DNA of 60,345 bases, the filler included, from Fonticula-like sp. SCN 57-25 (taxonomy: Eukaryota), in assembly GCA_001724245.1 (NCBI GenBank). It is 3 parts of 3 records of this genome, joined end to end, with 100 filler letters (N's around TTAATTAATTAA, not from the genome) between each part and the next. Parts side by side here need not be neighbours in the genome. Positions count along the whole stretch, not along the records: positions 1 to 22,815 come from MEDX01000179.1; 2 more parts are not named here. The stretch is one strand, 5' to 3'. Shown here in pieces: positions 1 to 17,268 of this stretch. The notes beneath the pieces were generated by a model. That model had not been told where the DNA came from and did no database searches. It was given only the letters and a program-made list of their open reading frames with translations. Position numbers and translations under genes: made by a program. Within the stretch, counting starts at the first letter, position 1, and each line of letters starts with the position of its first letter.

Positions 1-2
1 CT

Positions 3-191: not shown

Positions 192-286
192 CGAGTTTTT
201 TATTCATAACCCGCAGAACGCATATTTACGCATGTAGGTGTATCGCGGTTCGCTTGTTGCCTTCACTGATTTTGGAGGCAGAAACC

Positions 287-502
287 GTGAATGCATCGAA
301 CGATAACTTCCGCCCTGCGCTGATCTCCCTCAACGAGATTTGCGCCACCCTGACTGTCAGTCGCACCGCGGTAAACATCCTGCGTGCAGCTGGAGACTTC
401 CCGCAGCCGGTAGAGCTCGGCGAGCGACGTATAGCCTTCGTCCGCGACGAGTTCGACGCTTGGCTGCAGGCCCGTATCAAGGCAAGGGCGAAGGCCGCCT
501 AG
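287..502 (+). CDS. alpA: AlpA-family phage regulator/excisionase
   Basis: ISLNEICATLTVSRTAVNILRAAGDFPQPVELGERRIAFVRDEFDAWL is the AlpA wHTH pattern; GGAGG RBS before GTG 287; directly after the integrase. Confidence 0.88.
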   Translation: MNASNDNFRPALISLNEICATLTVSRTAVNILRAAGDFPQPVELGERRIAFVRDEFDAWLQARIKARAKAA

Positions 503-537
503 CCCCCCCTACCCCATCATCCCACAAGGAGTCCGCG

Positions 538-801
538 ATGCGGATCGTAAGAATTGATCCGGTGGTCGATCCGTCGACCGCCGGCGGCGTTGTCGCGCAC
601 GTCGACGCTCAGATCGGCGGAGTCCGGCTGAAACGCATGATCCTCAAGCGCAATATGTCGGGCGAGTACCGAATATACCCGCCCAAGATGCGGGGTCTGT
701 GCGTTGCAGACATCGACAAAGGACTTGCGGCGCACATCACTGACGCCGCGGTGCGAGCTCTTACCGGAGGGCGATTTGCCCATGGCGTCGACCACGACTG
801 A
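538..801 (+). CDS. Small hypothetical phage protein, possibly SpoVG/ssDNA-binding-like
   Basis: AAGGAG RBS before ATG 538; beta-rich N-terminus then a helix; overlaps the rep start. Confidence 0.55.
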   Translation: MRIVRIDPVVDPSTAGGVVAHVDAQIGGVRLKRMILKRNMSGEYRIYPPKMRGLCVADIDKGLAAHITDAAVRALTGGRFAHGVDHD

Positions 802-1915
802 GAAGCAGCCTAAGTCAGCGCCTGGCGATCCGGTACCGCAGCTGAACTTGTTGGTTATGGCGACAGTCGACGATCGGCTTAGCCGAGGCGACTTAGGAAT
901 CCTCGGTCGCCTCATCAAGCGTTTCAAGAAGTCGAAGGGAAATGCCTGGGCGACGCACGAACTGCTCGCCGAGCAAGCGCATCTCAGTGATCGGCAGGTC
1001 ATTCGGTCGCTGCAGCGCCTCACAGCGCTCGGTTACGTCCAAGTTCTCAGCAAGGGTGTTCGCGGCCGCGGTAGTGTGTACCTCCCCTCTTTCCACCTAG
1101 TTTTAGGTGACATTGGTGTCACGGAAACGACCCAGAATATGGGTGACATCGCGGTCACCCCATCAGTCACTTTCCCTGACATCGAAGGCACCGATTCAGC
1201 CAAAAGGGATGACATGGGCGTCACCCCCACTCACTTACGTCTCGCACCTACAGGTGCGCAGACGTTGAGTGAGTCTCCCTTGGAGTCCCCCACGTCTGCA
1301 CCACCCCACGCCCCTGCCGGGGCGGAGGTGGATGCCGTGGGGTTTGATAGGGTTTGGGAGGCGTATGGCGTTCGAACAAAGAGGGCGCAGGCCAAAGCCA
1401 CCTTCGCCGGCCTGAGTGACGTAGCCAATATCCTTGGCGAGATCGTCGCTGCAGCGACCCGCTGGCACGAGCACTACGAAGCGCAGGGAACGCCCGCCAG
1501 GTACCGAAAGCAGTTGCACACGTGGTTGAAGGGGGAATGCTACCTGGAGGACCCGCCGTCCTGGAAAGCACCCCTATCCGCGAAGACCGCGGCGCCGGAG
1601 CCTACCCCTCCACCCAAGGCCGAGGCCGCTCCCCAGCACTGCCGCATTGTATCAGCGACGGTGAGCGACGGCGATGAGGGAAGCGTGCTGAGCCTCACCC
1701 TGCAACCGGTAACCGGCGGCGCACGGATTGTGCGGAACCTGCGGCACCAAACATGGGAAGCGGCAGAAGTTGACGCGCTGCTGTCGGCCACGGGCTTGAA
1801 GGCAGGCGACGACAGCGACGAGCTCGAAGGGCGCGAGGTGCTGGTTGATGGCCGGTGGTATCTGCCAGTGCCGGCCAACGACAACGGCGAGGCGGCAACA
1901 GCCGCCTCTGCCTAG
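782..1915 (+). CDS. Replication initiator-like protein with N-terminal winged HTH
   Basis: AWATHELLAEQAHLSDRQVIRSLQRLTALGYV HTH; central FDRVWEAYG...KAQAKATF...YRKQLHTWL motif typical of phage replisome organisers; internal iterons. Confidence 0.75.
   Translation: MASTTTEKQPKSAPGDPVPQLNLLVMATVDDRLSRGDLGILGRLIKRFKKSKGNAWATHELLAEQAHLSDRQVIRSLQRLTALGYVQVLSKGVRGRGSVYLPSFHLVLGDIGVTETTQNMGDIAVTPSVTFPDIEGTDSAKRDDMGVTPTHLRLAPTGAQTLSESPLESPTSAPPHAPAGAEVDAVGFDRVWEAYGVRTKRAQAKATFAGLSDVANILGEIVAAATRWHEHYEAQGTPARYRKQLHTWLKGECYLEDPPSWKAPLSAKTAAPEPTPPPKAEAAPQHCRIVSATVSDGDEGSVLSLTLQPVTGGARIVRNLRHQTWEAAEVDALLSATGLKAGDDSDELEGREVLVDGRWYLPVPANDNGEAATAASA
1107..1224. repeat. Four palindromic iterons TGACAT-N4-G(T/G)CAC inside rep (putative replication origin)
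   Basis: Copies start at 1108, 1144, 1177 and 1210 (spacing 36, 33, 33 bp). Confidence 0.7.
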
Positions 1916-1919
1916 CCTC

Positions 1920-2345
1920 TTACCGGCCCAGCGTGAGTGTGTTGCCTCGGCCGTATCGCCGGCCGAGATCCATCAGAGTGTTGCCCTGCGGCGCAGCCGG
2001 CCTTGCCATCAAAGCCCGGATAACCGCGGCTTGGCTGCCGAGCTCGTGATATCCTTGGCACTTCGCGAGGAACTGCAGCATAGCTCGCTGCTCGCCGCCG
2101 GATACGCAGTACGTCTTAGCGGCGTGGTCGATTACCACTAGCAGATCATCGTCGAGCAACCCCGCACCTATGCGGAGCTGGTCATGGTTCGACCTGGCGT
2201 CGCCGGGCGCGATGAACACGGCCCCACTGGTCGGCTCATCCCAGATTGACGATGTGATGCGGGAAAGCGTCGACGTAAGGCCGGCCCAGCGATCGGAGTA
2301 GGACGGCAGGTTGTGACCTGTAAGTCTGAACATCAGAGTTTTCAT
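1920..2345 (-). CDS. Hypothetical protein
   Basis: 141-aa ORF filling the gap between rep and the next plus-strand gene, with a LexA box upstream; no family recognised. Confidence 0.55.
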   Translation of the reverse strand: MKTLMFRLTGHNLPSYSDRWAGLTSTLSRITSSIWDEPTSGAVFIAPGDARSNHDQLRIGAGLLDDDLLVVIDHAAKTYCVSGGEQRAMLQFLAKCQGYHELGSQAAVIRALMARPAAPQGNTLMDLGRRYGRGNTLTLGR

Positions 2346-2476
2346 TCGGGTGGTCCTTTCTGGACACGGGACAGCATGAAGGCACGTTTGCGTGCCCGGC
2401 CCTCCCTGGATGAGCGCAAATACCGCGCCTCCGACCGAACGATTCGTACTCTAGCGCATCTTGGCGCCGCTGTCGT

Positions 2477-2491
2477 GTTCCTTGTTCGTTC
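2477..2491. promoter_or_regulatory. Alphaproteobacterial LexA (SOS) box
   Basis: GTTC-CTTGTTC-GTTC matches GTTC-N7-GTTC exactly, in the divergent intergenic region between ORFs 1920-2345 and 2601-3638. Confidence 0.7.
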
Positions 2492-2600
2492 TCCACAAAG
2501 AAGGAGATACGAACAAAATAGCGACGGCAACTGACTTGCCCCATGTAGGTGTATCGGGGTTCGCTTTTCCCCAAGCTGCACCCCAGCCTGGGAAATCACC

Positions 2601-3638: not shown

Positions 3639-3755
3639 TCTTTGTACCCCTCAGGGGGTGGTGGCAGCGTAGTCAATTGAGAGGGGTGCTCCGCAGCGGC
3701 ACCATTCTCCCGCTCGTTTGGCAAAGGCGAGCGTAGCCGCACTCGACGCCTGCTC

Positions 3756-4295
3756 GTGCGTTGGGTGCGGCTTTTCTCATCCCTTAGTTCGCGATTTTCG
3801 CAAACCGCCGGAAGGCGGCAGCGGCGTGTAGCGCACGGCCATAGTGGTGGCGGCCGCCATGCGTTCCGCCGCGACCCATTCGAGGAAGCAGGCGACCGGT
3901 GTTCGCGTGGGTCGCGTTACGCATGCGGCCAGACAAACTTTCAGCAGGCTGGCGTGCTGCCGGTGGCTATCGGCGCAACGCGTTACCGACTCCGACCTTC
4001 GCAACTGGCAAGGTTGGTTGTGGCATCGGTGCTCGATGTGCCGCTTCGAACGGTCGCCGATGCAGCGCTCGAGGTGTGCCAGTTGCCGGATGCAGCGGGC
4101 AGAACATTCGGCGACGCACTAGCCGCGGCACTGGACCACCGGCAACACGCCCCACTGACCGTCGATCTGGACCGCCGCTTCGCGACTTTCGGCGACGCGG
4201 TGTTCGGCAAGGTTCCGGCTTCAACCTCGATCTGTCGCCGCTGCCAGATCCCCACCGAGGTCACGCGAGAAGTTATCCGGCGGCTAGACCGCTGA
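3756..4295 (+). CDS. Hypothetical protein (start uncertain, probably further downstream)
   Basis: Longest plus-strand ORF in the gap, ending 19 bp before the next gene; the C-terminal two-thirds looks protein-like. Confidence 0.4.
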   Translation: MRWVRLFSSLSSRFSQTAGRRQRRVAHGHSGGGRHAFRRDPFEEAGDRCSRGSRYACGQTNFQQAGVLPVAIGATRYRLRPSQLARLVVASVLDVPLRTVADAALEVCQLPDAAGRTFGDALAAALDHRQHAPLTVDLDRRFATFGDAVFGKVPASTSICRRCQIPTEVTREVIRRLDR

Positions 4296-4314
4296 AAATC
4301 CAAAGGACTGAAAA

Positions 4315-4917
4315 TTGAAATTCCCGCACCCCCGTGAGTTCGCCCCCGAGCTCGATGAACTATGCGCCAAGGAAGCCGAACTCTCTGAGCAAGCTGCGCC
4401 ACGGCGCGCCGATCGCCTGACGCTTATTTCCAAGCTGCGCGATCGCGACCCGGCCGAAGAAGTTCCGCCGCCCAACCCGCAGACCGTGCGTGTCGCCGGA
4501 CTCTTAGGGCGCGATGCGCCGGCGGGGACGGCGTCGACACGGGAACGCCTCAACCAGGTGGAACGCGAGCTGGCCGACATCGACGCGGCCCTGTCGTTGC
4601 TTGGTAGGGATATTGCCGCGGCGCACAGAACCGCCTCGGTGAAGGCGCGCGCGCAAGCGGATGGCGAATATCGCAAACGGGTTGCGGCCGTAGCCACGGC
4701 GCTGACCGCGGCGCACGACGCCAACCACGCGTTGCGGGCGTTCGTTGAGGGATTCGAGGACGCTGGATTCAGCTCCTCCGGCTGGTCGCAGTTGTTCCCC
4801 GGCCTACTGGGCGGGCACACCGATCCAAATTCGCCGCTCGCCTACTACCTTCGCGAGTGCGTTGAGGCCGGCGTGATCGCCGCGGGCGATATTCCCCCGG
4901 AGCTGCGTCATGCGTAG
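4315..4917 (+). CDS. Hypothetical coiled-coil protein
   Basis: AAGGA RBS, TTG start, helical heptad character, overlaps the protease start. Confidence 0.6.
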   Translation: MKFPHPREFAPELDELCAKEAELSEQAAPRRADRLTLISKLRDRDPAEEVPPPNPQTVRVAGLLGRDAPAGTASTRERLNQVERELADIDAALSLLGRDIAAAHRTASVKARAQADGEYRKRVAAVATALTAAHDANHALRAFVEGFEDAGFSSSGWSQLFPGLLGGHTDPNSPLAYYLRECVEAGVIAAGDIPPELRHA

Positions 4918-5638
4918 GTCCGAACCGATTGCCACGTTGAGCGGCCAGGCCATTGTCGCGCCGCGCGCCGTGGCAGCATGGCGAGCTCGGTGCGAGCGCA
5001 TTGCGGGGCGAGACGATCGAGCAAAGCGAACCGCGCCAACCGCTACGACTCCTGCATCATCGCAGATGACCGAACCAGGTCTGCAGGGCTATGCGTGTGT
5101 GTACGGGCGCCCGTTCATCAAGGCCGGCAAGATCATGATGTTCGAAGCGGGCTGCTTTGCCGGCTCAGTGTACATCGGCCCCTCCAAGTCTGTGCTGTTC
5201 GATCATGATGATCGGGATGTCATAGGCACGACAGCGGACGGGCTGGAGTTCGCCGGTGCCAACGACGGGTTGGTCTATCGACTCCCACTGAAGGGCAACC
5301 GACGCGCTGCCGAGGTTGAGCGCGGCATCCGGTCCGGCGAGAAGGGCTGCGCCTCTGTGGGCTGTGAAATACACGAGGCGCAGCAGATGGAGTCGGCCGG
5401 CGTGCCGTACACGCTGATCACCAAGGCGACTCTCTACGAGGTATCGCTTGTACCGCAAGGCGCTGTATCCGGAACTTCTGCGAGTATCGTCGACCTGGCA
5501 GACGAGCCGCGAGACCTGCGCTCCGCTGCGCGCAGTGCCAGCTTCAAGCTGGATCAGATCGCCTCCAACACGGCCACCAGCGGCCGCCGGTTGATGGACC
5601 GACTCGAGCGGCTCGACAGGTTGCTGCGGCAGGCGTGA
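4910..5638 (+). CDS. HK97-family prohead protease (peptidase S78-like)
   Basis: LQGYACVYG, FEAGCF, LFDHD (His), GCASVG (Ser) and LYEVSLVPQGA motifs. Confidence 0.85.
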   Translation: MRRSEPIATLSGQAIVAPRAVAAWRARCERIAGRDDRAKRTAPTATTPASSQMTEPGLQGYACVYGRPFIKAGKIMMFEAGCFAGSVYIGPSKSVLFDHDDRDVIGTTADGLEFAGANDGLVYRLPLKGNRRAAEVERGIRSGEKGCASVGCEIHEAQQMESAGVPYTLITKATLYEVSLVPQGAVSGTSASIVDLADEPRDLRSAARSASFKLDQIASNTATSGRRLMDRLERLDRLLRQA

Positions 5639-5639
5639 C

Positions 5640-5720
5640 TTGCATAGGGGGGTATGCAAATCCCTAGAACCCTGTCCACCCCCGACCGCGCCCGGCCATT
5701 CGTGCGCATTTTTCCAATTC
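5640..5720 (+). other. Putative cos/packaging site upstream of terS
   Basis: TTGCATA-GGGGGG-TATGCAA palindrome, then AAATCCCT...GACCGCGCCC...CGTGCGCATTTTTCC, the layout seen just upstream of small-terminase genes of HK97-like cos phages (recognised by eye). Confidence 0.5.
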
Positions 5721-5738
5721 AAAACCCAGGGGTGGATC

Positions 5739-6083
5739 TTGCCACGTCCTAAGACGCCATATGCGAAGGCATTCGCCCTGGGAGCGGTCGAAAAGCACCG
5801 AGAGCGCTACAAACCGCTGCCACCTACGAACCTTCCGAACCTCGGGCCCTTGGGCGATCCGCCGGAATGGCTGAAGCCAGGGCAACTCGAGTTCTGGAAC
5901 GAGATCGCGGCGGATATCCCGTGGCTGACATTCTCGCATCGCGGCATCGCCGCCATCGCCTCGATTGCCGCTGACAAGTGGCGCGCCAGCGAGGGGACAA
6001 ACATTAAGGCGGGGAACCTACTCCGCCTTTGTCTTCAATCGATGGGCGCAACGCCAGCCACCGAGCACTTTGCCGGCAGGTAA
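5739..6083 (+). CDS. terS: Terminase small subunit-like protein (P27 family)
   Basis: MPRPKTP...LGDPPEWL...FWNEI...IPWLT...LQSMGATPA pattern; TTG start after GGGGTGG. Confidence 0.7.
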   Translation: MPRPKTPYAKAFALGAVEKHRERYKPLPPTNLPNLGPLGDPPEWLKPGQLEFWNEIAADIPWLTFSHRGIAAIASIAADKWRASEGTNIKAGNLLRLCLQSMGATPATEHFAGR

Positions 6084-6107
6084 GCCCCGACAACAAGGAG
6101 GCCACCC

Positions 6108-6470
6108 TTGGCCGATTTTCCAGTCCCGATCCCAACTGGAGCGGGCAATCTTCGCTATCGACTCGCGTTCGACCAGCGCATCCAGCAGGACGATGGGTTT
6201 GGGAACATCGTCGGCGACTGGCAGGAACAGTTCATTACTGCGGCTGGCATGATCCCAATGACCGGCGGCGAAGCGGCGCGCGCATCCCGTCTCGAAGGGA
6301 TTCAGCCGTACACCGTCAGTATCCGCAACAACCCGCAGACCGCGAGGATCACGCCCGATTGGCGATGCCGTGACCTACGCACCGGACAGGAGTTCGCGAT
6401 CCGCACCGTGGTGACGCGCCCGACCCGATCATATCGGGACCTGGTTGTCGTGCAGGGTGAGGCTGCTTAG
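6108..6470 (+). CDS. Phage head-closure/head-tail adaptor (SPP1 gp16-like)
   Basis: AGNLRYRLAF...DDGFGN..GDW...GGEAARASRLEG...ITPDWR motifs; AAGGAGG RBS. Confidence 0.85.
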   Translation: MADFPVPIPTGAGNLRYRLAFDQRIQQDDGFGNIVGDWQEQFITAAGMIPMTGGEAARASRLEGIQPYTVSIRNNPQTARITPDWRCRDLRTGQEFAIRTVVTRPTRSYRDLVVVQGEAA

Positions 6471-6493
6471 GCCAATTGAGGGCGAGCGGAAAG

Positions 6494-6815
6494 AAAGTGC
6501 AGGCTTCTGTTGCCAGGTGCCTGCGAACCCCGCCTGTCGGACTGCTAGGCCCGGAGGACTTCTAGTTCAGGTGCCAGCGCCGCATTAAGCAGCGAGAGCA
6601 ACCTTAGCATAGTTGTTGTTGGCAACTATCAGGATGGCCCGATATCGGTGGTACCATGCCGGGCAAAAGTCTAACCTTTAAGCCCCTGTCGATCCTGTTT
6701 CATCCCCATGCAACCCCGCCAACAACGGGGCCAAGTGTGGTGGAGACGCCGGGCACTGCCCCCGGGTCCAATGGGTTTATTACGCAAGCCGTTTATCGCC
6801 ATAGCCGTTACCGGC
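6494..6815 (-). ncRNA. ssrA: Two-piece (circularly permuted) alphaproteobacterial tmRNA gene
   Basis: Minus strand: acceptor piece ends GACCCGGGGGCAGTGCCCGGCGTCTCCACCA (CCA at 6738); 30-nt intervening segment; coding piece starts GGGGATGAAACAGGATCGAC (6707); acceptor stem has G3-U70; ATAGTT precedes the resume codon; tag frame 6623-6585 reads ANNNYAKVALAA*. Outer ends approximate. Confidence 0.95.
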
Positions 6816-6821
6816 GCATGT

Positions 6822-6851
6822 AGTATAGGTCTGCGCCGTGGCTAATGTAAA
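6822..6851 (-). promoter_or_regulatory. Sigma70-type promoter of the tmRNA gene
   Basis: Minus strand TTTACA/TTACAT, 17-18 nt spacer, TATACT, about 7 nt before the acceptor piece. Confidence 0.65.
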
Positions 6852-6964
6852 TGCGATGCGCTATTAGGCAGGGGAAACGGTCTATGAACACTCGATGGAG
6901 GCTTGGCCTTGCGCGCGGGTTAAGGTTTGCGTTACAGGCGTGGCTGAAATGTCGCATGAGCCTA

Positions 6965-6992
6965 TTGCAATGTGTTTAGCTATAACTTAACT
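6965..6992 (+). promoter_or_regulatory. Putative TA promoter with imperfect palindromic operator
   Basis: TTGCAA at 6965; GTTTAGCTATAACTTAAC (6974-6991) is a 14/18 palindrome directly upstream of the toxin start. Confidence 0.45.
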
Positions 6993-7002
6993 CCTAGGAC
7001 GC

Positions 7003-7407
7003 ATGATGAGCCGATCTGGCGCGCCACAAAAGGTTGCGACTGACCGTGAACGCGTAGCCACCGATGGCTACGCGGACGTTTGGCTAATTGGCGAAGCACT
7101 AACCGCGTGGAAAGCCCTGTGCAGCAGGAAAGACGAGAACAGCCGCCGGGCCGCGCAGCGCATCGGACGGTATTTCCCGCGCTTCGCCCAGCACGGGGAA
7201 TCGGCGTTTACCGACGAGATGTTCAAGCGCGGGAACGAGCACATGATTTACGAGTTCAAGGCTCATCAGTTCCGCCTCTACGGTGTCATTCGCACCTATG
7301 AGGGGAAGCGGAGTTTTGTCGGGACGGCCTGCGATCCGGCCAAGAAGAACAATAAAGCCGATCCCGCAATACTAAGAAGAGCCGCGGATGCGGCCGACAA
7401 AATTTGA
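7003..7407 (+). CDS. higB: RelE/HigB-like toxin of a toxin-antitoxin-chaperone system
   Basis: IYEFKAHQFRLYG...F...KK motif of RelE/Gp49-type RNases; toxin-first order; TGATG coupling to the HTH gene. Confidence 0.72.
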   Translation: MMSRSGAPQKVATDRERVATDGYADVWLIGEALTAWKALCSRKDENSRRAAQRIGRYFPRFAQHGESAFTDEMFKRGNEHMIYEFKAHQFRLYGVIRTYEGKRSFVGTACDPAKKNNKADPAILRRAADAADKI

Positions 7408-7835
7408 TGGAGAGTGGAATGGCTGCGAAGAAAAACCATGACTGGGTCGCAATCGAGGAGAATGCGCTTCTGGATTTTCAGTTCGCCGTGATTGACGCGA
7501 TGGCGGCCGCCGGCGTTACGAAGGCTGAACTCGCGGACAGGTTGGGAGTGTCGCGTGCTCGTGTGTCTCAGATGCTCGATTCTGAGGCAAACCCGACTAT
7601 CCGAGTAATCGCCAGGGCGATGGCCGTGCTGGGTCGCGAAGTCAAGTTTGACGTGTGTGACGCAAGCACCGAAGCGGTGGATGTGGCTGACGAACAGGTT
7701 GAGGACAACCTTGAAGTCGAAGAGACCTTCACCTTTTTGCGCGCTGCAGACTCTGGTTGGGAAGTTCAGCAGCGACGGAGTGCCCCTGCGAATGAGAACC
7801 GATACGCCCGATATGCCGGAAAGGTTGCCGCCTGA
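7407..7835 (+). CDS. higA: HigA-like Xre-HTH antitoxin with C-terminal chaperone-addiction-like extension
   Basis: GVTKAELADRLGVSRARVSQMLDSEANPTIRVIARAMAVLG HTH; about 60-aa acidic/aromatic tail ending PANENRYARYAGKVAA. Confidence 0.8.
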   Translation: MESGMAAKKNHDWVAIEENALLDFQFAVIDAMAAAGVTKAELADRLGVSRARVSQMLDSEANPTIRVIARAMAVLGREVKFDVCDASTEAVDVADEQVEDNLEVEETFTFLRAADSGWEVQQRRSAPANENRYARYAGKVAA

Positions 7836-8344
7836 TGTCTAAGGAGATGGTTTCGGTGGATGAGGCGACGGCTACCCCGGCCGCTGATGCCTCGTCTGCC
7901 GAGGCTCTCGAGGCATACAACGCTGTGGTTAGAGATGCTGACTTGCAAGCTGTTCAGCTTCTTGATCTTTCCTTCAATGTCGACCCGGCATTTTTTGGTG
8001 ATCGATCCAAGCGAAAATTCGATCTGAATATCGAGCAAGGCGCGAACGAGTTTGATTCCTCGAAGGGCGCAGCCTTTTCGTTCATCAACATCGTTGTGAG
8101 CGTGAAAAGAGCCAGGAAAAATACCCTGCTGTGCAGAGCGAAGTACGTCGTAGTCTATGAGAACCTGAATGGCTGTGAAGAGGATGCGGTGAAGGCGTTT
8201 CTTGACAGAGTAGCCCCATTCGCTTGCTACCCATATTTTCGATCCGTCTTTGCGACCTTGGATTGGGCGGCGGGGACGATGTTGCCACCACTTCCAATTC
8301 ACAAGGAGAAGTCGCGCGTTGAGAAGGCCGGCTCGCCCTTCTGA
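7835..8344 (+). CDS. SecB-like chaperone (TAC third component)
   Basis: LQAVQLLDLSF beta strand and APFACYPYFRSVFATL...LPPLP C-terminal signature of the SecB fold; TGATG coupling. Confidence 0.8.
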   Translation: MSKEMVSVDEATATPAADASSAEALEAYNAVVRDADLQAVQLLDLSFNVDPAFFGDRSKRKFDLNIEQGANEFDSSKGAAFSFINIVVSVKRARKNTLLCRAKYVVVYENLNGCEEDAVKAFLDRVAPFACYPYFRSVFATLDWAAGTMLPPLPIHKEKSRVEKAGSPF

Positions 8345-8353
8345 AGCCTTGAT

Positions 8354-8376
8354 AGCCGCCTCCGGGCGGCTTTTTC
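8354..8376 (+). terminator. Intrinsic terminator of the TAC operon
   Basis: AGCCGCC-TCCG-GGCGGCT followed by TTTT. Confidence 0.8.
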
Positions 8377-8690
8377 TTATCCGAGCCCCATCAACGCCGC
8401 GAGCAGCGCTCCGACCTTGAACAGGATGCCGCCGAGCAGTTTTGGCACGGCGAAGGCCAGCGCTGTTGCGAGCCACTTCGGCAGCAGTGGCGGTTTAGGG
8501 GTGGTTCTGGGGACACGGCGCTTAGCCAAGGGCGAAGTCCTTCATTGAGAAAAATCTCAATGCGGATCCCGCTTCGCTTTTGTGCGCCAGATTCGGTTGC
8601 CACTGCAAACAGATTAAGGCGCTCGCCCACGCCTTCAATGGTGCGCGCGCGTTCTCCACACCCACCAGCACATTTTTCTTGGAATCCAAA

Positions 8691-9086
8691 ATGCTCCATG
8701 ACTCCGTCTCCGCCCGCTTCGGCGGCCGAGACTTCACGCTCAAAATCAGCCGAGCCGACTTGCCGGCTTTCGAGGCCGCTACCGGCGACTCGGCGTTCGC
8801 AGTGTTGAAGGCAATACACGCCGGCACCTGGACGGTGCGTCAGTTGAAATCCGTCGTTGGCTTCGCCATGGCGGCGCCCGAGCAACTCCGGTTGGCTCGG
8901 GCGATGGCTCGAGCATCCCAGCACGGAATGGCCGGCTTGGAGCCTACCGCGACGCACGTTGAGCGCGTTTTAGCAACTCGCCCGCCGGCGATCTATGCAC
9001 CCCTCGCCGAGGCCATCTTAGGGGCCGCGCTTTTTGGCATCACCGCCGAGGAAGCTACTTTCACGGATGAGCCAGATGGCGCGTGA
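8691..9086 (+). CDS. Tail assembly chaperone, GTA-gp10-like
   Basis: FGGRDFTLKI...FEAATG...GTWTVRQL...LAEAILGAALFG pattern; sits before gp10 and the tape measure. Confidence 0.65.
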   Translation: MLHDSVSARFGGRDFTLKISRADLPAFEAATGDSAFAVLKAIHAGTWTVRQLKSVVGFAMAAPEQLRLARAMARASQHGMAGLEPTATHVERVLATRPPAIYAPLAEAILGAALFGITAEEATFTDEPDGA

Positions 9087-9483
9087 CGCCAGCGTCCGCG
9101 ACTTCGCTCGCCGCCTGGCTCGAGTGCCGGTGTCCATCCGCGCCGCCACAAATAAGGCAATCGCCAAGAATGCGGAAGAATGGGTGCGGGTCTCGCGCGC
9201 CACGGCGCCAAAAGATACCGAGGACGGTACGCCGCTGCATGACAGCATCCGGCGCCACACCACCGAAAGCGGCGGACAGGTTGTGCGTGCCGGCGGACCG
9301 CCCACCACGAAGCCGAGCGCTGGCGGACAGGTCGACTATGCCATTTCCCAGGAGTTTGGCACCGCCGCAATGACGGCTAGCCCATTCTTCTGGCCGGTCT
9401 ATCGATCCTTCAAAAAGCGATGGGCGACCCGGCGCCGCTCCGCAATGAACAAGGCCTTCAAGGAATTCAACAATGGCGGGTGA
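9076..9483 (+). CDS. HK97 gp10-family tail-component protein
   Basis: APKDTEDGTPLHDSI...YAISQEFGTAAMTASPFFWPVY signature. Confidence 0.85.
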   Translation: MARDASVRDFARRLARVPVSIRAATNKAIAKNAEEWVRVSRATAPKDTEDGTPLHDSIRRHTTESGGQVVRAGGPPTTKPSAGGQVDYAISQEFGTAAMTASPFFWPVYRSFKKRWATRRRSAMNKAFKEFNNGG

Positions 9484-10969
9484 ACCGACCCTCTACGCGC
9501 GCATGGAGTTGCGCCTCAACGACTTCGAACGGAAGCTCGCCAGGGCAACGAAGTCCGCAGACGGCGCCATGTCGAAGATCGAGCGCCGTAGCGATCGCAT
9601 GGCGTCGCGGATAGCGAGCGTCGGCGCCGGTGCCTTCAGCGGTCTAGCCAAAGGCGCGGCCGGCGTGCTGCTGCCTCTGCTCACGGCCAGCGCCGCAATT
9701 GATGGCACGAAGGCCGCGCTCGAGGCGTTCGGGGCCGTAGCGGACAATTCGGCCGCAGCAGGACTCGACGCGGAATTTTGGCAGTCTCTGGCGTACCAGG
9801 CGAGCCTGGGTGGCGTGGCGATCGACCAACTATCCGGCGCCTTGTCCACATTCGCCAAGAACAGTGGTCTCGCCGCTGAGGGCAAGGGGAGGATGGTCAC
9901 CAGCCTCAAGGCGCTAGACCCCGTCCTGCTCGAGAACATTCGGAAGGCGACCACACAAGAGGCCCGCATCCGACTTGTGGCCGACGCGCTCGCCAAAGAA
10001 ACCGACGCGAGCCGAAAAGCTGCCATTGCTACTGCGGCGTTCGGCGATGCCGGCCTGAAGCTCGCCAACGTCTTCTCGGGTGGCGCGGCGCAGATTGACG
10101 CTATGGCAGCGAAGGCCCGCGACCTCGGTTTGATCGTCGACCGCGACGTAATCGCCAAGGCCGACGCGATCGGCGACTCGTTCGACACAACGAGTCAGAT
10201 TCTCGACCTGAAGGTCAAAACGGCGCTGGTGAACCTCGGCCCGCTGCTCGTGTGGCTTACCGGCCTAACTGGCGACTTGGCTGCCGCTGCCGGCACCGTG
10301 TTCGACAGCTTCAACGGGATCGGCGATCGAGCCACCAGCACGTTGGAGGCGCAACTTACGGCCCTGCGTGACTCGATGTCGAAGCCGATTGGCTTTGGCG
10401 GCACCCTGCAGGGCATGTTCGACCCGGCCGCGGTTAGGGCCGAAATCGCCAAGATCGAGGCCGAGATATTCCGGCGCGCGGACCAGGGCAGCGTGGTGAA
10501 GCTGAAGGGCATTGCGCCGACAGCGCCCGACCTTCCGACGCTCGATGAAATCGAGACGCGCAACTCCGCCGCAGCCGCGACGCTTCGCCAGGCCGAAGCG
10601 GTCAAGGCGTTGATTGCCGACCTTGAATTCGAGCAGTCGCTACTTGGGAAGTCAGAGACACAGCAGGCTGTGGACACGGCATTACGCCAGGCTGGCGCCG
10701 CAGCAACCGCCGAGCAGCGAGCCAAGATCGAGCAACTGACTGTGGCGATCGCCGAGCAGCGGGCAGAGATCGAGGCCAACCAGCAGGCAATGGCCGAGTT
10801 CGGTGAAATCGCCCGATCGGCGACGCGATCGATGATCGATGACCTTGTAGCCGGGAAAACTGCCGCGGAAGCGTTCGGCAACGTGTTGTCGGACATCGGC
10901 AGCAGACTGGTCGATTTGGGACTTACCGCGCCAGTTGGCGGCGTTTTCACATTGGAGTTGGCTGCGTGA
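9473..10969 (+). CDS. Short tail tape-measure-like protein
   Basis: N-terminal ELRLNDFERKLARA, Ala-rich helical body, KARDLGLIVD motif; 498 aa; follows gp10. Confidence 0.75.
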   Translation: MAGEPTLYARMELRLNDFERKLARATKSADGAMSKIERRSDRMASRIASVGAGAFSGLAKGAAGVLLPLLTASAAIDGTKAALEAFGAVADNSAAAGLDAEFWQSLAYQASLGGVAIDQLSGALSTFAKNSGLAAEGKGRMVTSLKALDPVLLENIRKATTQEARIRLVADALAKETDASRKAAIATAAFGDAGLKLANVFSGGAAQIDAMAAKARDLGLIVDRDVIAKADAIGDSFDTTSQILDLKVKTALVNLGPLLVWLTGLTGDLAAAAGTVFDSFNGIGDRATSTLEAQLTALRDSMSKPIGFGGTLQGMFDPAAVRAEIAKIEAEIFRRADQGSVVKLKGIAPTAPDLPTLDEIETRNSAAAATLRQAEAVKALIADLEFEQSLLGKSETQQAVDTALRQAGAAATAEQRAKIEQLTVAIAEQRAEIEANQQAMAEFGEIARSATRSMIDDLVAGKTAAEAFGNVLSDIGSRLVDLGLTAPVGGVFTLELAA

Positions 10970-11700
10970 CAGCGTTCCTGTCTTTCCCATATCCCGACCG
11001 CATTGAGCTCTTTGCCGACGGCGCGACCTGCCTGCCAAACGGCCTGCTGATTGCCGCTACCGACAAGATCGTCGTTTCGCGCCAAGTGCCATTGGCCGTG
11101 GTCGGGCGCGGCAATCACGGCGACCTGGTGAAGATGACCGATGCGATCCTCAAGCTAACGGCCTGCGGTTCGATCGACGACACGCTCGAGCAACTCGCCG
11201 GCGCTCTTGATGACGTTCGCGTCGATCCGGGCGAGCCGCCTGGTCAGCATTTCGAGCTTGTCATCGCCGCATACTCAGAGACGCACGGTCCGTGCCACTT
11301 CGTGCTGAACAGTTATGGCGGTCCCGAACTACCTGCCTGGACCCTCATCGACCGCTCTGGCGAGATGATCGGCGGCGGCAACGTGCCTAGTCCGGCGGAT
11401 GTCGAGGCGGCTGGGCTGAATGCAGAGACGTTCGCCAACGGCGCCGCGGTGGGCGGGCTGGCGCTGATGGAGATGATGCGCCGGCTGCCAGGCAAGGACG
11501 AAACCCGTGAGGGCGCTACGCACGGCTTCTGGATCGGCTGTCACGTCGACCATGCGGTTATCAGCGCGGCGGGGGTGAGCGTGATCCGGCTTCACACTTG
11601 GCCGGACCAGCTGTTCAAGCCAATCGAGCCCTACCGCGACTTGTCGGCCGGCGATCCCGCTGCCGGTCCCAACGGACCGGTGAGTTCATCGAGCGTGTAA
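10966..11700 (+). CDS. Ntn-hydrolase fold, proteasome-beta/HslV-like protein
   Basis: After Met removal: Thr1, Asp17, Lys33, Gly46/48; later ELVIAAYS..GPCHF and IGCHVDHAVISAAG segments echo beta-subunit strands; GGAG RBS and GTGA overlap with the tape measure. Confidence 0.6.
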   Translation: MTAFLSFPYPDRIELFADGATCLPNGLLIAATDKIVVSRQVPLAVVGRGNHGDLVKMTDAILKLTACGSIDDTLEQLAGALDDVRVDPGEPPGQHFELVIAAYSETHGPCHFVLNSYGGPELPAWTLIDRSGEMIGGGNVPSPADVEAAGLNAETFANGAAVGGLALMEMMRRLPGKDETREGATHGFWIGCHVDHAVISAAGVSVIRLHTWPDQLFKPIEPYRDLSAGDPAAGPNGPVSSSSV

Positions 11701-11843
11701 GCGCGGCCAGACGTGTCGTGGATCATGATCCGCCCAGCGCCGGCACTCTTTAGCTCGTGATACTGCACGACCGCCGCCTCTGGCGTCGCTGCTTCACGTT
11801 GCCATGTCCCGGTCAACATTGAGTAGGTGATGATGAAAGCCAT
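11631..11843 (-). CDS. Small hypothetical protein
   Basis: MAFIITYSMLTGTWQRE...; GGAG upstream of ATG. Confidence 0.5.
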   Translation of the reverse strand: MAFIITYSMLTGTWQREAATPEAAVVQYHELKSAGAGRIMIHDTSGRAYTLDELTGPLGPAAGSPADKSR

Positions 11844-11944
11844 GACCGCTCTTTCTCCGCACGTGGGCAACGTGCGCATGAGAAACGGGCGGTGGCATTC
11901 CCTGAGTTTCACTTATCAGAGTCCGCACACCGGCGGCAACCTGG

Positions 11945-12058
11945 CTAGCCTCTAGGGGTCGCCATAAGCCCCACCAACACGATTCCGGCGGCGATCAGAA
12001 CGACGATCGCCAGCCACGCAACGATCATCCAACCGTACCCGTAACGCCCCCTAAGCAC
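11945..12058 (-). CDS. 37-aa single-pass membrane peptide
   Basis: MLRGRYGYGWMIVAWLAIVVLIAAGIVLVGLMATPRG; GGAGGA RBS at 12063-12068. Confidence 0.5.
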   Translation of the reverse strand: MLRGRYGYGWMIVAWLAIVVLIAAGIVLVGLMATPRG

Positions 12059-12320
12059 GTCGTCCTCCCAAGGGCCGCTGGAGTGAACACTCTGCCCTGG
12101 CCCGACGGGCATCAGGTGCAATCATAGTCTGTCCCGTACACGCTTCAATAGCGGCAACGGCGGCCAACCTCAGGAAACCCCCATGACCACCACGCCGCGC
12201 CCCCAGCGCGAAAACATCAACACGTCCGAAAACCGCAGGCTCATCGCCGCCGACGTCGCTCGCATCGTTGCAGCCGACGAAGCCAAGGCGGCATCGCGCA
12301 TCAAGCCGGAGATCCGCTAA

Positions 12321-14333
12321 TTGCCCCTGCCGACCATTTACAACACCGGCACCGCGTCGGTTGCCAACGGCGCTACGACCATCACTATCGTCGGTGCGGT
12401 GTCCAACGCCATCTATGCCGGCGATTTCTTCATGGACCCGGCGCAGCCGCTCGTGCCGCCGCAGCGCATCGCGTCGGTCACCGGCGGCGGCGTTTACGAG
12501 CTCGCGGTCGGCTGGCCTGGCGCGGCGATGACGTCTGACCCGTACGAGGTGCGGTTCACGCACGATGGTGTTCGCACCTCGGAGCGCACGCGCCAACTCA
12601 TTGAAAAGATGTCCGTCGTCGAGGCTAATGGTCGCGGTCTGTTCTATCTTTTTGCCACGGCGACGTCCGACGCCGACCCCGGCGCCGGCTACCTGCGGCT
12701 CAACAATGCCACGCCGGGCAGCGCAACGGCCGCTTACCTCGACAACTCGGATGCCAACGGCGCACCCGTTCAGACCATCCTCGACACTTGGGACGACAAT
12801 GGCGCCACCGGCGGCCGCGGCCAATTGTGGGTGCGCTCGGTCGCCTCACCGGCCACGTTCCATGCCTACACTGTCACGGGCTCTGTGGTCGACGGCACCG
12901 GCTACCGCAAGCTGACTCTGTCCTATGTCGGCGGCTCCGGCTCGCTCGTGGCGGACGACGAGTTGATGGTTGATTTTGTGTCGGTTGGCCCGGCCGGCGC
13001 GCCTGGCGCAGCTGGCACCAATGGCACCAACGGAACAAATGGCACCAATGGCACCGACGGCAAGTTCAGCGGCACCGAGGTCATCAAGACCGCCGCGTAC
13101 ACTGCGCTCGCGGCCGATGTCGGCAAGACAATCATCCTGAACAAGGCGACGGCAGACACGCTGTCGTTCGCTGCCGCAGCCACCCTTGGCTCAACTTGGA
13201 TGGTGATGGTTAAGAACATCGGCACCGGCACGTGGTCCCTGGATCCGAATGGCGCTGAGACGATCGATGGCCTATCGACCATCTCGCTGGCACAGGGTGA
13301 GAGTATTGTTGTTTCGTCCAACGCGACGGCGTTGCGGAGCTTCTTTCGTGGGTCTGCGGCGTTCACTCAGTTCACGGCGGCGACCTCTTCGTCTCCGGCG
13401 CAACTCGACCTGGCCGAGCAAACGACCAACGGCACTAACAAGGTATCGCTGAAAGCACCGGCCTCGCTGACAGCCGACCGTGTGCAAACTCTGCCGGACG
13501 CGGCTGGAACGTTCATACTGGGGGCGACCGGTGCCATCGACAATCGCTTGCTCCGCAGTGACGGTTCGGGCGGCTCAACGCTTCAGGCCTCTGGCGTAAC
13601 GCTGGCAGACACCGATGACATGACGATACCGGGCGTTTTGGTAGTCGGAGACAACGGCAAATTCTCGTTCTATGATAACGCGACAGATGCGATCTTTCAG
13701 GTCAACGGTGCATCGAGCAATTTCAACATTTATCACTCTGGCCTTGGCGCAACTATACTGAACTATAGCCAAGCAGACAGCCGCTGGACCACGCGCGGTG
13801 AACTTCGCCCTAGTGCGGACAACACATACACCCTTGGTGCATCAGGCGCACGCTGGAGTCAGGTATGGGCGGCGACGGCGACCATCAACACCTCCGATGC
13901 CAGGACTAAGGCGGACATCGAGGACAGTCATCTGGGGCTCGATTTCATTCTGCAGCTACGGCCAGTGAGCTACCGCTTTTGTGTAGGCGGCAACCGCTGG
14001 CAGGACACCGGTGCCACCGAAGAGTATTTGGAGCCGCAACCCGATGGTACTACGGAAGTCAGAACCCGTGCGCTACAGGAACTTGTGCCGGTGCCCGGCC
14101 AGCGGAGACACTTCGGCTTGATCGCTCAGGAGGTCAAGGATGCGTTGGACCTCGCCGAGTGCGCGGATTTTGGCGGATGGGTTCTGACCGATAAAGACGA
14201 TTTGAATAGCGAACAGGGACTTAGATACGAGGAGTTCATCGCGCCGCTGGTCAAAGCAATACAGGAGCAGCAAGAGCAGATCGAATCTTTGCGAGCTGCG
14301 CTTCAAGGGTGGGATGACGTAACGGCGGTCTAA
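12321..14333 (+). CDS. Tail fibre protein with collagen-like repeats and C-terminal intramolecular chaperone (peptidase S74-like)
   Basis: YNTGTASVANG N-terminus; GPAGAPGAA(GTN)4; SDARTK...LRPVSY...GLIAQEV...LRYEEFIAPLVKAIQE. Confidence 0.88.
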   Translation: MPLPTIYNTGTASVANGATTITIVGAVSNAIYAGDFFMDPAQPLVPPQRIASVTGGGVYELAVGWPGAAMTSDPYEVRFTHDGVRTSERTRQLIEKMSVVEANGRGLFYLFATATSDADPGAGYLRLNNATPGSATAAYLDNSDANGAPVQTILDTWDDNGATGGRGQLWVRSVASPATFHAYTVTGSVVDGTGYRKLTLSYVGGSGSLVADDELMVDFVSVGPAGAPGAAGTNGTNGTNGTNGTDGKFSGTEVIKTAAYTALAADVGKTIILNKATADTLSFAAAATLGSTWMVMVKNIGTGTWSLDPNGAETIDGLSTISLAQGESIVVSSNATALRSFFRGSAAFTQFTAATSSSPAQLDLAEQTTNGTNKVSLKAPASLTADRVQTLPDAAGTFILGATGAIDNRLLRSDGSGGSTLQASGVTLADTDDMTIPGVLVVGDNGKFSFYDNATDAIFQVNGASSNFNIYHSGLGATILNYSQADSRWTTRGELRPSADNTYTLGASGARWSQVWAATATINTSDARTKADIEDSHLGLDFILQLRPVSYRFCVGGNRWQDTGATEEYLEPQPDGTTEVRTRALQELVPVPGQRRHFGLIAQEVKDALDLAECADFGGWVLTDKDDLNSEQGLRYEEFIAPLVKAIQEQQEQIESLRAALQGWDDVTAV

Positions 14334-14548
14334 CGCCCCACCGCGCCACATGTGACCGTCCGAATCCTTTTCCCTGGAGGAGCGGCGGACCTGCAGCCGG
14401 CGTCTTGCCCCGGACGTCGGCTGCTTACACCTTTTGGTGAGTGGACCGGCGCTGGCGAATGCCTTTTATTTTCTAGGCCCTAGCCTTCTGCGTCCACACC
14501 GACGGCTGGGGTGGCGGATGCCAAGGCCCCCCGCGGCATCCGCCTCTT

Positions 14549-14563
14549 GTTCTCTTTTCGTTC
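14549..14563. promoter_or_regulatory. Alphaproteobacterial LexA (SOS) box
   Basis: GTTC-TCTTTTC-GTTC overlapping a TTGTTC...TATCCT promoter, about 43 bp upstream of ATG 14606. Confidence 0.75.
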
Positions 14564-14605
14564 ACGGTGCTATCCTCAGGCCCTTCACTGGCAATGGAGG
14601 ACAGA

Positions 14606-14893
14606 ATGTACCGCCAACCCCTCACAACGCCCGGCAAGGCACCGGAACCCAAGGCCCAGAAAACCAAGCTGATCGTGCTGCTCGCGTTCGATCGCGGCGA
14701 AGACGGCGAGTTGCTGCCGTCGTTCGAACCTCGCGAGATGCCGGACGAACGCCGCGCCGTTCAGACAGCCAGGGAGATGGCGACGCGGCATCCGGGTGTC
14801 ATCACCTGGTCGCGTGACGCCGACTTGAAGGCTGGCGAGTTCGGACCACCGGTGGTGCTGTTTCAGGCGGGCGACGTGCCGGAGCTCGAGTGA
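14606..14893 (+). CDS. Hypothetical protein (putatively SOS-regulated)
   Basis: GGAGG RBS; LIVLLAFDRGEDGEL...GVITWSR...GEFGPPVVLF; LexA box upstream. Confidence 0.7.
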   Translation: MYRQPLTTPGKAPEPKAQKTKLIVLLAFDRGEDGELLPSFEPREMPDERRAVQTAREMATRHPGVITWSRDADLKAGEFGPPVVLFQAGDVPELE

Positions 14894-15207
14894 TGGGCAG
14901 GTTCCCCAAGACAGTCCGAGAGTTCATCGAAGCCGGCCGGCAGGTCATTCAGGAATGCGAGGCCTGCCGGCGTAAGGCGCCTATGGACCTCTCCATGCTG
15001 GAGCTCACTTTCGGCGGTGACTTCGACCTTTTCGCCAGCATGCGCGAAATGCGCGACCGGCTGAGTTGCCCTGCTTGTGGCCACCCGCGGCCGTTGATCG
15101 AGTTCTACAATCCGACGGCGACGCACTTCCGCGATGTGGGCTTTGACGAGTCGGTGACGTCGGCGTTGGAGTTCAGCGCGTATAACCGGGCGCGGAAGGC
15201 GAGCTAG
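14890..15207 (+). CDS. Small zinc-ribbon protein
   Basis: CEAC and CPAC pairs; coupled to the upstream gene. Confidence 0.65.
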   Translation: MMGRFPKTVREFIEAGRQVIQECEACRRKAPMDLSMLELTFGGDFDLFASMREMRDRLSCPACGHPRPLIEFYNPTATHFRDVGFDESVTSALEFSAYNRARKAS

Positions 15208-15590
15208 CGTCGCTTTCCCCGCCGTCGCGGCCGGGTGACGGCTTTTGCCTTTTCTGACAAGCTTTCCAGGATGCTCGCCTGTTCTTCCGCGCGGATCTCG
15301 ATGTACGCCTCGCGGACGTCACGATCTATGTCGACGATCGCCTGCTCCTCTTGGACCTCCTCGACTAGGAGCATCCACCACGACAACGTTCGGTTGTCAT
15401 CCCGGAAGAAGTGTCGACTGATCACTTTCACAGGACCGAAAGTGCCGAGGTCGCTGAGGCCGTTCAGCATGTCGCCGACGGCTGGAAGCGTTCCAAATCG
15501 ATTGATGGCAAACTCGCAGCAAGCGTCCACGACGTCGGGCGCGGAACGCATGACGATCTGAACGGTTGGCAGAACGATCAAATCGCTCAT
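15204..15590 (-). CDS. Hypothetical protein
   Basis: 128-aa ORF starting 12 bp downstream of the xis-like gene on the same strand. Confidence 0.55.
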   Translation of the reverse strand: MSDLIVLPTVQIVMRSAPDVVDACCEFAINRFGTLPAVGDMLNGLSDLGTFGPVKVISRHFFRDDNRTLSWWMLLVEEVQEEQAIVDIDRDVREAYIEIRAEEQASILESLSEKAKAVTRPRRRGKRR

Positions 15591-15602
15591 CGCGTCAGCT
15601 AA

Positions 15603-16106
15603 CTAGGTCCACGAACGGGCGGCTTCGCGGGCGAGCTCTCGCCCCGCGTCCGTCAACGATAGTGTATCCCCGTCGTCGAGGATGAAACCTCGCCTAGCCA
15701 AGCTGGCGCGCGATTGTGGGCCTGCACCCTCTAACGTTTCCGGGGCAGCAGGAGCGCCGCGCCGATAGAGCGACAGCAGTAGGCGGCGCTCCCACGGGGT
15801 GAGCTCGCGTGCCTTGCGTAGCTCGGCTTGCGCCGGCGTCCCCAGCGAGAAGTCCCACTCGTCGTCTTCCTGCTCATCCTCGGCGCCGCCAGGCAGACGG
15901 GCGAATGCCTGCTCGATTTCGATGCGCGACCACACCCGCCGCGTGTCGATCTGCTTCGGCTTCGGCATGCGGCCATCTTTCACCATCTCGTCGAACTTCG
16001 TCGGCGAGACATCAATGTAGGCGGCCGCCACTTCGCGGCTCAATCCCAACGGCGGCAGCGACGGCGGCAGGATGTCCTGGCGTTTAGGTTTGCGCCCTTC
16101 GGTCAC
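15603..16106 (-). CDS. Excisionase/AlpA-like HTH fused to a second winged-helix-like domain
   Basis: PLGLSREVAAAYIDVSPTKFDEMVKDGRMPKPKQIDTRRVW; acidic linker; LARRGFI...LSLTDAGRELA wing motif. Confidence 0.7.
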   Translation of the reverse strand: MTEGRKPKRQDILPPSLPPLGLSREVAAAYIDVSPTKFDEMVKDGRMPKPKQIDTRRVWSRIEIEQAFARLPGGAEDEQEDDEWDFSLGTPAQAELRKARELTPWERRLLLSLYRRGAPAAPETLEGAGPQSRASLARRGFILDDGDTLSLTDAGRELAREAARSWT

Positions 16107-16219
16107 TGGAACCACTCAGTCTCGGCGTCCGCCAGCGGGGTTGTCAGCGAGGCCACCACAGTTGCCGCGACGACTAGGCCGCCAACCAGGGCTAATGCGA
16201 CGACCACGAAGCGGGTCAT
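16103..16219 (-). CDS. 38-aa hydrophobic peptide
   Basis: MTRFVVVALALVGGLVVAATVVASLTTPLADAETEWFQ; GTGA overlap with the xis-like gene. Confidence 0.4.
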   Translation of the reverse strand: MTRFVVVALALVGGLVVAATVVASLTTPLADAETEWFQ

Positions 16220-17178
16220 TCTCCCCGCGGCTGCCGCTTGTGGACGGGCAAGAACAATTGTCGGACCGGATGACATCTCAACGCAACCTATAGTTTAGGC
16301 GCGTATTTGATCACAACAGACGCGTTGGAGTCGAGTCCATCTGCCGACGCATATTATCGCATATTCTATAATCGATATGCGAATACATGCATGCGCCCCT
16401 CCTCCGACGTCGATAAACAATCGTGTCAACAATTAAATACAACAAGACCACCGCCCCCAGAGGGGTGTGGCTACTTGTTTTTCGCATGAATCAGCACAGG
16501 GTGCCTAGCGGAGCGTGACAACTCCCGCGATTAGGGCCGCCAAGCCCGGTTCGCACCCAGAGCGACGACCTATCCCGCCAAGGATTTGCCGTCGAAGAGA
16601 CCGCGCCAACACTTCGTCGGCGCGACCGGCATCCTTATGCCGGGAGTCCGACCGCCATGCAATAGCCTCTCGGAGGTAAAAGCGGCCGGGCATGTTCTCT
16701 GGACATGTTGTCACCCTCCCGGTGCGCGGCCGACCTGCGCATGGCCGTGACAAGCCAAATCCGGAGCCACAATCAAAATGACCATCACCACCCCTGCCCC
16801 CACCCTGGCCGAGATCGAACGCCTGATGCAGATCGCATGCGGTGAGCTTGTGCTCATGCGCGGCAGGATTCGAATGGAAGCCACCGGCACCGAGACTGCC
16901 GTCGAGTTTTACCTACCAGCGCGCCATGGTGGAAAAGCTTGATGCGAAATTCGACAGCCAACACCAACAAAGCTCTTTATTGGGGCCCGAACACCGGATG
17001 GACCGGTGGCAAGGAGAAATCTAAATGACAAATGATCTAGAAAGATTCATCGGTTGGCACAGCGATTTGGCGTCGATCCTGAATACTAGGAAGGCCGCCT
17101 AGCCCCTAGGTGCGCCGTTAGGATGGCGGTTATGACATCGTCAATAACCGCCAAATACCTCAACACAATCAATAGGTT

Positions 17179-17268
17179 TGGCGGGTAGGGAGGGATTCGA
17201 ACCCCCGGAACGCTTTCACGTTCGCCGGTTTTCAAGACCGGAGCAATCAACCGCTCTGCCACCTACCC
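17179..17268 (-). tRNA. tRNA-Ser (anticodon TGA), 90 nt
   Basis: GGGTAGG...CCGGTCTTGAAAACCGG, long variable arm, GGTTCGAATCC T-loop, encoded CCA. Confidence 0.97.

Follow-up and report, generated by a model that had tools for sequence, protein, structure and literature searches.

Why would a small phage-like element set a proteasome-like peptidase directly behind its tape-measure gene? The question is raised by an open reading frame (ORF) in a 60,345-nucleotide stretch of DNA from Fonticula-like sp. SCN 57-25 (the window), which consists of several contigs joined by N. The original prediction described its product as a proteasome-beta/HslV-like protein with an N-terminal nucleophile (Ntn), coupled to the tape-measure gene and perhaps processing the tape measure or removing host or defence proteins. 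Our analysis suggests that it is an active N-terminal Ser/Thr peptidase of the proteasome-beta family, to judge by its fold and residues, and that it belongs to a tail-hijack module of what appear, from their gene context, to be small phage satellites of Hyphomicrobiales. We propose tentatively that it cuts a tape-measure protein (TMP) so that the N-terminal piece made by the element can work with the tip-bound piece of a helper phage. The features on which the argument turns are as follows.

10966..11700, + strand: ORF of the proteasome-beta-fold Ntn peptidase, with GTG start, 244 amino acids, T1-D17-K33 and G48
10954..10969, + strand: GGAG ribosome-binding site, and the GTGA in which the start overlaps the stop of the TMP gene, read from the sequence
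9473..10969, + strand: short tape-measure protein, 498 amino acids, matching tape-measure PHROGs down to E 1e-23
10925..10969, + strand: novel 14-residue end of the TMP, conserved at the protein level with synonymous changes in locus L004 and similar in L103

The peptidase gene and its family

Read directly in translation and with the Met removed, the ORF shows T1, D17, K33, G46, R47 and G48, as predicted. GGAG stands at 10954-10957, eight bases 5' of the GTG start, and the start shares the four bases GTGA (10966-10969) with the stop of the 498-residue TMP-like gene. The N-termini of relatives line up at M-[S/T], which supports this start and indicates no other. A consensus scan found no promoter between the two genes, and the peptidase gene is present in a single copy in the source genome (contig C179). 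A frameshift fusion of the two products was rejected, as in many loci the peptidase frame is already closed within a few codons upstream, and the slippery heptamers have scattered positions; there was no in-frame fusion among 7999 longer candidates, a weak indication.

A word search gave 11 close relatives, and the full search gave 298 clusters at E<=1e-3, with 150 of them among the matches listed; the resulting alignment (A2) has 148 rows, and residue counts are over 147. D17 and K33 are each conserved in 145/147, as expected, while Thr1 did not prove general: position 1 carries Ser 117 times, Thr 29 times and Gly once, and this is a mainly Ser1 family. The prediction of a conserved glycine held for G48 (144/147), which is the near-invariant one, and not for G46 (96/147). 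The triad is retained across the diversity of the family, down to 22-30% identity, in proteins of about 225 residues, and R171 (147/147), G190, W211 and D213 are conserved residues specific to the family.

The AlphaFold2 model built on A2 (pLDDT 93, pTM 0.88, with low confidence in the last ~20 residues) bears out the proposed fold. Its top Foldseek matches are proteasome chains (E 3e-8), and the VIA ranking places beta subunits first (Z 17.2, root-mean-square deviation 3.5 over 188 residues), followed by Anbu (14.5), HslV (14.2), BPH (11.0) and connectase (9.5); the ESM Atlas model gives the same picture, with TM 0.61-0.65 to proteasome clusters. G48 ends the strand 42-48, the place of the Gly47 oxyanion hole. 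Helices 50-66, 69-85 and 160-171 are clear, whereas only a 6-residue helix (142-147) is found where H3 is expected, and about 14 residues are added after H4. In the three respects in which the prediction was most exposed, then, the fold is Ntn, the start codon stands, and the nucleophile at residue 1 (as Ser or Thr) and Lys33 are both kept.

No family in Pfam, PHROGs, NCBIfam or PADLOC names the window peptidase, and a sequence search of the PDB with it gave no match. Among the 148 family members, none matches Pfam Proteasome or a relevant NCBIfam model, and a profile search of the PDB reached proteasome beta chains only at E 0.35. One family member is matched over 207/218 positions (E 4e-9) by phrog_13702, labelled 'terminase large subunit', which is probably a mislabelled proteasome-like family.

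Relationship to known proteasome-like families

With the 20S beta subunits (best match 6e5b_K), HslV (1m4y), Anbu (5loy) and BPH (5ovs) the family shares the Ntn beta-sandwich, the N-terminal nucleophile, Asp17, Lys33 and the oxyanion-hole Gly, but it is only 9-19% identical to them and differs in the predominance of Ser1, the short helix at H3 and the extension after H4. The conserved WxD..G..IxP tail and the location in phage-satellite tail operons are peculiar to it. Unlike 20S beta, it has no propeptide and no alpha-subunit partner among its recurring neighbours; unlike HslV, it has no AAA+ gene (HslU) among them. Its likeness to Anbu and BPH is one of fold only, since it has no match in Pfam or NCBIfam, and neither appeared in the PDB profile search.

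The proteasome-like Ntn family has been defined, in the accessible part of Fuchs, Alva and Lupas 2021 (PMC8665760), by a conserved beta-sheet core, Thr1/Ser1-Asp17-Lys33 and the Gly47 oxyanion hole. The present family has that core, with S/T1 in 146, D in 145 and K in 145 of 147 and G48 in its place. The PPH and AAH groups and the proteobacterial RPC, DPH and PMI groups described there are likewise uncharacterised proteasome-like peptidases with Thr1 or Ser1 on phages or prophages. PPH and RPC lack H2, and PPH has ~140 residues; membership in either was rejected, as the present family has H2 (69-85) and a length of ~225. It could be the same as AAH, DPH or one of the PMI groups; the accessions shown for 10 family members include none of the representatives given in the part of the paper that we consulted, which also reports no telling gene context for phage or proteobacterial homologs. 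Connectase, according to the text available in PMC7980362, is a proteasome-beta homolog with Ser1 or Thr1 that swaps protein ends, and it resembles the present family in these residues and in having no unfoldase partner. It lacks H1/H2, however, carries a two-helix specificity insert between S3 and S4, and is archaeal and a known ligase; membership was rejected because our model has H1/H2 and no such insert.

Coupling to the tape-measure gene

Genome matches to profile A2 were found in 10/401 of the order of G001 (a Hyphomicrobiales bin), in 19/243 and 25/301 of two families, and in 3/401 of the class. A total of 62 loci of up to 20 kb, which end at 10 kb or at contig ends, were read together with the window by a home-made gene caller. 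They hold 56 full-length peptidase genes in 53 Hyphomicrobiales loci, and 34/56 directly follow a TMP gene; the predicted coupling is real. The TMP is the commonest neighbour of the peptidase (45 loci), and coupling to it is spread over the whole peptidase tree. There are 35 coupled TMPs if one locus is included in which a contig end truncates the peptidase, and 33 of them show the 4-base overlap. The -4 position behind a frame of at least 380 codons is occupied by 32/56 peptidase genes as against 20/1223 other genes in the same loci. ClpX-like 'AA' ends occur in 8/35 coupled TMPs and in 19/155 other -4 genes.

The 35 coupled loci contain a capsid or head protease (25), integrase (18), large terminase (TerL; 7), portal (5) and tube (2). 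No Dit match was found in them, and hub proteins gave one weak partial match among the 35 and none in the window. The peptidase-TMP pair is also carried by two small plasmids, p3META1 of Methylorubrum extorquens AM1, a laboratory strain, and pAMS5c of Methylobacterium. A metagenome pattern scan gave no relative, and viral contigs gave one. The usual layout is reversed in L025 (9688-11245, + strand), where the peptidase is followed by the C-terminal half of a TMP only.

The coupled tape-measure proteins are short at the C-terminus

The original prediction overlooked that the coupled TMP ends early, at the point where the peptidase gene begins, just as it overlooked that the element lacks tail-tip genes and that the nucleophile is usually Ser. 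As controls we took 40 of the top-scoring TMP places outside peptidase loci, dropping one at a contig end, and built a C-terminal model (171 positions) from the last 170 residues of the remaining 39, with five-fold cross-validation. The model was reached to position 130 or beyond by 37/39 controls and by 6/9 uncoupled TMPs in peptidase loci, but by 0/35 coupled TMPs, none of which matches beyond position 93 (scores there are at most 3.7). The model start is matched by 13/35 coupled TMPs, with break points at 32-93. For the window TMP, homology to full-length TMPs ends at position 33/171, while its 8 closest controls continue for 98-164 residues. Median lengths are 571 (coupled) and 745 (control), and no C-terminal TMP remnant was found elsewhere in the coupled loci.

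The short TMP is not a relic: the 14-residue end is conserved through synonymous changes, and the ratio of nonsynonymous to synonymous substitution (dN/dS) points to purifying selection in one close pair, L106/L107, two copies in one genome, where it is 0.054 for the short TMP and 0.089 for the peptidase; between the window and L004 the TMP value is 0.28, near saturation. When the peptidase was modelled together with the final 71 residues of the TMP, without alignments, the score was 0.22.

A second partner

Copies of the peptidase that do not follow a TMP mostly follow, with moderate confidence from sequence comparison, a short hydrophobic frame resembling the start of a tail hub. Nineteen other upstream frames end in the overlap. 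Hydrophobic ones number 13, against 42/297 background frames, and a model of the hub/central-fibre N-terminus is matched at 5 bits or more by 5/19 as against 0/297; the evidence is graded no higher because PHROGs recognised none of the 13 hub-like short frames. Five elements (L024, L029, L085, L105 and L109) carry two peptidase paralogs, and in L024, L029 and L105 one paralog lies behind the TMP and the other behind the hub-like fragment.

In the intact prophage L130 (region 8452-12879, - strand) a distant member, whose T1-D17-K33-G48 spacing is identical, lies behind the central fibre gene as a fusion with a knob-like domain. The 907-residue central fibre stops at a repeat and overlaps the peptidase-knob fusion; this repeat recurs at the start of two free knob genes, an arrangement that looks like exchangeable receptor-binding ends. 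The ESM Atlas gave nothing for this fusion. The rule that fits most copies is that the peptidase gene follows an N-terminal piece of a tail protein. In two loci (L026, 9157-9636; L102, 9190-9609) what comes after the peptidase is no more than the N-terminal portion of a central fibre J-like protein (in L026, phrog_31 positions 114-225).

The element in the window

Positions 1-17200 of the window, on a contig cut at its left end, appear to be a small phage-satellite-like element. Besides the features given above it contains the following.

254..502, + strand: excisionase/AlpA-like regulator
704..1915, + strand: replication initiator
4910..5638, + strand: prohead protease (Peptidase_S78)
5640..6083, + strand: small-terminase-like protein, a weak assignment (phrog_83 E 0.08; cluster relative E 3e-11)
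6108..6470, + strand: head closure protein
6496..6854, - strand: permuted alphaproteobacterial transfer-messenger RNA (tmRNA) gene, complete, 274.7 bits, the only one found in the source genome
7003-8344, + strand: toxin-antitoxin-chaperone-like three-gene operon, encoding a 134-residue protein (RelE/HigB-like by eye), a helix-turn-helix protein and a SecB-like protein
8691..9086, + strand: tail assembly chaperone (Phage_TAC_11, GTA-gp10-like), scanned as 8580-9083, with start 8691 from the gene caller
9034..9483, + strand: HK97 gp10-like tail completion protein
12321..14333, + strand: tail fibre/spike with S74 intramolecular chaperone
17179..17268, - strand: tRNA-Ser(TGA), the probable right boundary of the element

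By eye, a frame that ends near 190 looks like the last part of an integrase truncated at the start of the contig. The ends of the tRNA-Ser and the acceptor end of the tmRNA gave single matches only, with no second att copy. The tmRNA is either a captured host gene or the boundary between two islands, and because it and the toxin-antitoxin-SecB-like operon lie mid-element, the region could be either a single element with an insert or two islands side by side; the gene order in the relatives L085, L105, L109 and L128 favours a single element. The SecB-like gene has a weak PADLOC match to PD-T4-9_C (E 0.009). A 25-base direct repeat (96%) at 231-255 and 2542-2566, 5' of the excisionase-like gene and of a 345-residue gene, is a possible shared regulatory site. 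ANDN-like motifs, which resemble the start of the tmRNA tag, recur at 704-1915 and 2601-3638 and in many control TMPs.

A possible role in helper tail assembly, and the alternatives

Processing of the tape measure is the best-fitting of the functions originally suggested, whereas the removal of host or defence proteins gained no support. The element makes its own TMP, which is missing the C-terminal domain by which a TMP is anchored in the tail tip, and it encodes no tip. Because it has neither a tip nor a tip-binding TMP end, it would need the tip of a helper together with the tip-bound end of the helper's TMP. The co-translated peptidase could then make the enabling cut. The most probable site would be in the full-length TMP of the helper, close to the Gly-rich junction that precedes the C-terminal domain; the tube would be filled by the N-terminal piece from the element, along with the element's chaperone and completion protein, instead of by the helper's. 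The helper would be weakened, and the element would gain its own DNA-delivery protein.

Parts of this scheme have precedents. The TMPs of T5 and DT57C are cleaved during assembly, the C-terminal piece plugging the tip and the N-terminus meeting the DNA (10.1101/2022.09.20.507954 and PMC10713586, in the portions available). According to the accessible text of PMC12987554, the PLE11 satellite replaces the TMP and chaperone of helper tails with its own, Rta acts as a block on the helper TMP by a mechanism left open there, and tmp genes are present in some phage-inducible chromosomal islands of the capsid-forming kind (cf-PICIs); satellites that alter helper tails were described only in 2026. The present element resembles PLE11/Rta in its satellite-encoded TMP and tail assembly chaperone and in a presumed interference directed at the helper TMP. 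It differs in that Rta has no recognisable family and the PLE11 helper is a myophage in Vibrio; that text contained no C-terminally short TMP or coupled peptidase.

Several observations weigh against the proposed cut in a helper's TMP. PLE11 encodes its own hub protein alongside its TMP, whereas the present element has no hub. Full-length peptidase copies are uncoupled from a TMP in 22/56 cases. The overlap comes cheaply: whenever ATG stands before a Ser(AGY) or Thr codon a TGA arises (53/56), so that the -4 arrangement is partly automatic. Co-variation of the peptidase with the TMP N-terminus is weak (rho 0.12, p 0.02); the cassette has therefore moved among TMP types. The other 22/35 coupled TMPs give no match to the control model, and for these 'truncated' may only mean a TMP family beyond the controls. 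At what we take to be the place of the catalytic helper residue Ser129, mapped by secondary structure and by proteasome numbering, Pro stands in 73/147; with this, the short H3 and the residues added after H4, ring assembly cannot be assumed. Capsid, portal, large terminase, tube and tip genes were not seen in positions 1-17200, cut at the left as they are; the first three are the traits of a cf-PICI, and their counts in the coupled loci are given above. In addition, the tmRNA gene interrupts the element between its head-closure and tail genes, and the element may be decayed or may be two islands.

An unlikely alternative, and the one that survives best, is that the module sabotages the helper: the short TMP or hub N-terminal peptide would be a decoy that gets into tail assembly or the entry of DNA, or jams it, the peptidase would destroy the tail protein that it meets, and the host would be protected as by Rta, which blocks helper tails via the TMP (PMC12987554, as far as its available text goes). 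The partners are always N-terminal fragments of tail proteins unable to anchor alone, and several elements, including the two plasmids, which have no annotated head genes, retain TMP and peptidase with little else. The pair sits, however, in a late structural operon with chaperone and completion genes, five family members gave no match in PADLOC, and TMPs of about 390-1100 residues are retained where a short decoy would suffice.

Two further explanations seem distinctly improbable. The peptidase may only remove a short end of the element's own TMP, as in lambda or T5 TMP processing. Translational coupling is consistent with this, and of 28 loci, 18 have a TMP end more like that of the nearest peptidase neighbour and 8 one more like that of the nearest TMP neighbour. 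The difference is not significant, though, and the global test of TMP end against peptidase is flat (rho 0.008); moreover, the coupled TMP is already without the piece that is normally cut off. Equally improbable is a virion-borne tail-tip enzyme, delivered to the next cell or acting on the envelope, for which the TMP link would be a gene order left by deletion of tip genes. The fusion of the L130 member to a knob-like domain behind the central fibre gene speaks for it, and fibre genes often adjoin the peptidase. Stand-alone copies have no attachment domain, though, and no intact prophage among the 40 control TMP loci, which were chosen away from known matches, carries the peptidase within ~4.5 kb downstream. 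INPHARED phages, with four family members as queries, gave nothing beyond two unrelated rows at E 0.01.

It is a little less probable again that the enzyme is a ligase, which trims the short TMP end and links the remaining N-terminal piece to a C-terminal one from the helper's TMP, hub or fibre, giving chimeric tail proteins after translation. Connectase provides a model for the chemistry (PMC7980362, in the part available), the novel TMP end is conserved at the protein level, and the shared repeat of the L130 fibre and free knob genes would suit an exchange of ends. DNA recombination would give the same L130 pattern, however, the two-helix insert of connectase is missing from our model, and no common recognition motif is visible between the coupled TMP ends and full-length TMPs. 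That the peptidase is a hitch-hiking cassette with an unrelated job, which merely broke the TMP gene, would explain the stops or frame breaks within several peptidase matches and the partly automatic overlap but is very improbable, given broken-off TMPs that stay open for 386-1107 codons in 35 divergent loci at low dN/dS.

Implications

TMP cleavage in tail assembly has long been known from lambda and T5, and the protease responsible is mostly not known. The literature outside subscription journals yielded no description of a TMP-peptidase pair or of a C-terminally short TMP; the coupled TMPs without a far C-terminal domain and the hub-fragment partner appear to be new. Phage proteasome homologs have been described, none with a function or a telling gene context in the part of PMC8665760 available, and the strict context of the present family names a candidate substrate. 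If the ligation reading were true, the family would be a second sequence-specific ligase of the proteasome-beta fold, and satellites would assemble their chimeric tails by joining proteins, not genes, and so could plug into many helper tips. If instead the peptidase serves tail hijack, as we tentatively propose, the module, which offers an enzymatic route to helper-tail change together with a C-terminally short TMP, would represent an undescribed way of cutting into and taking over the tail of a helper phage.
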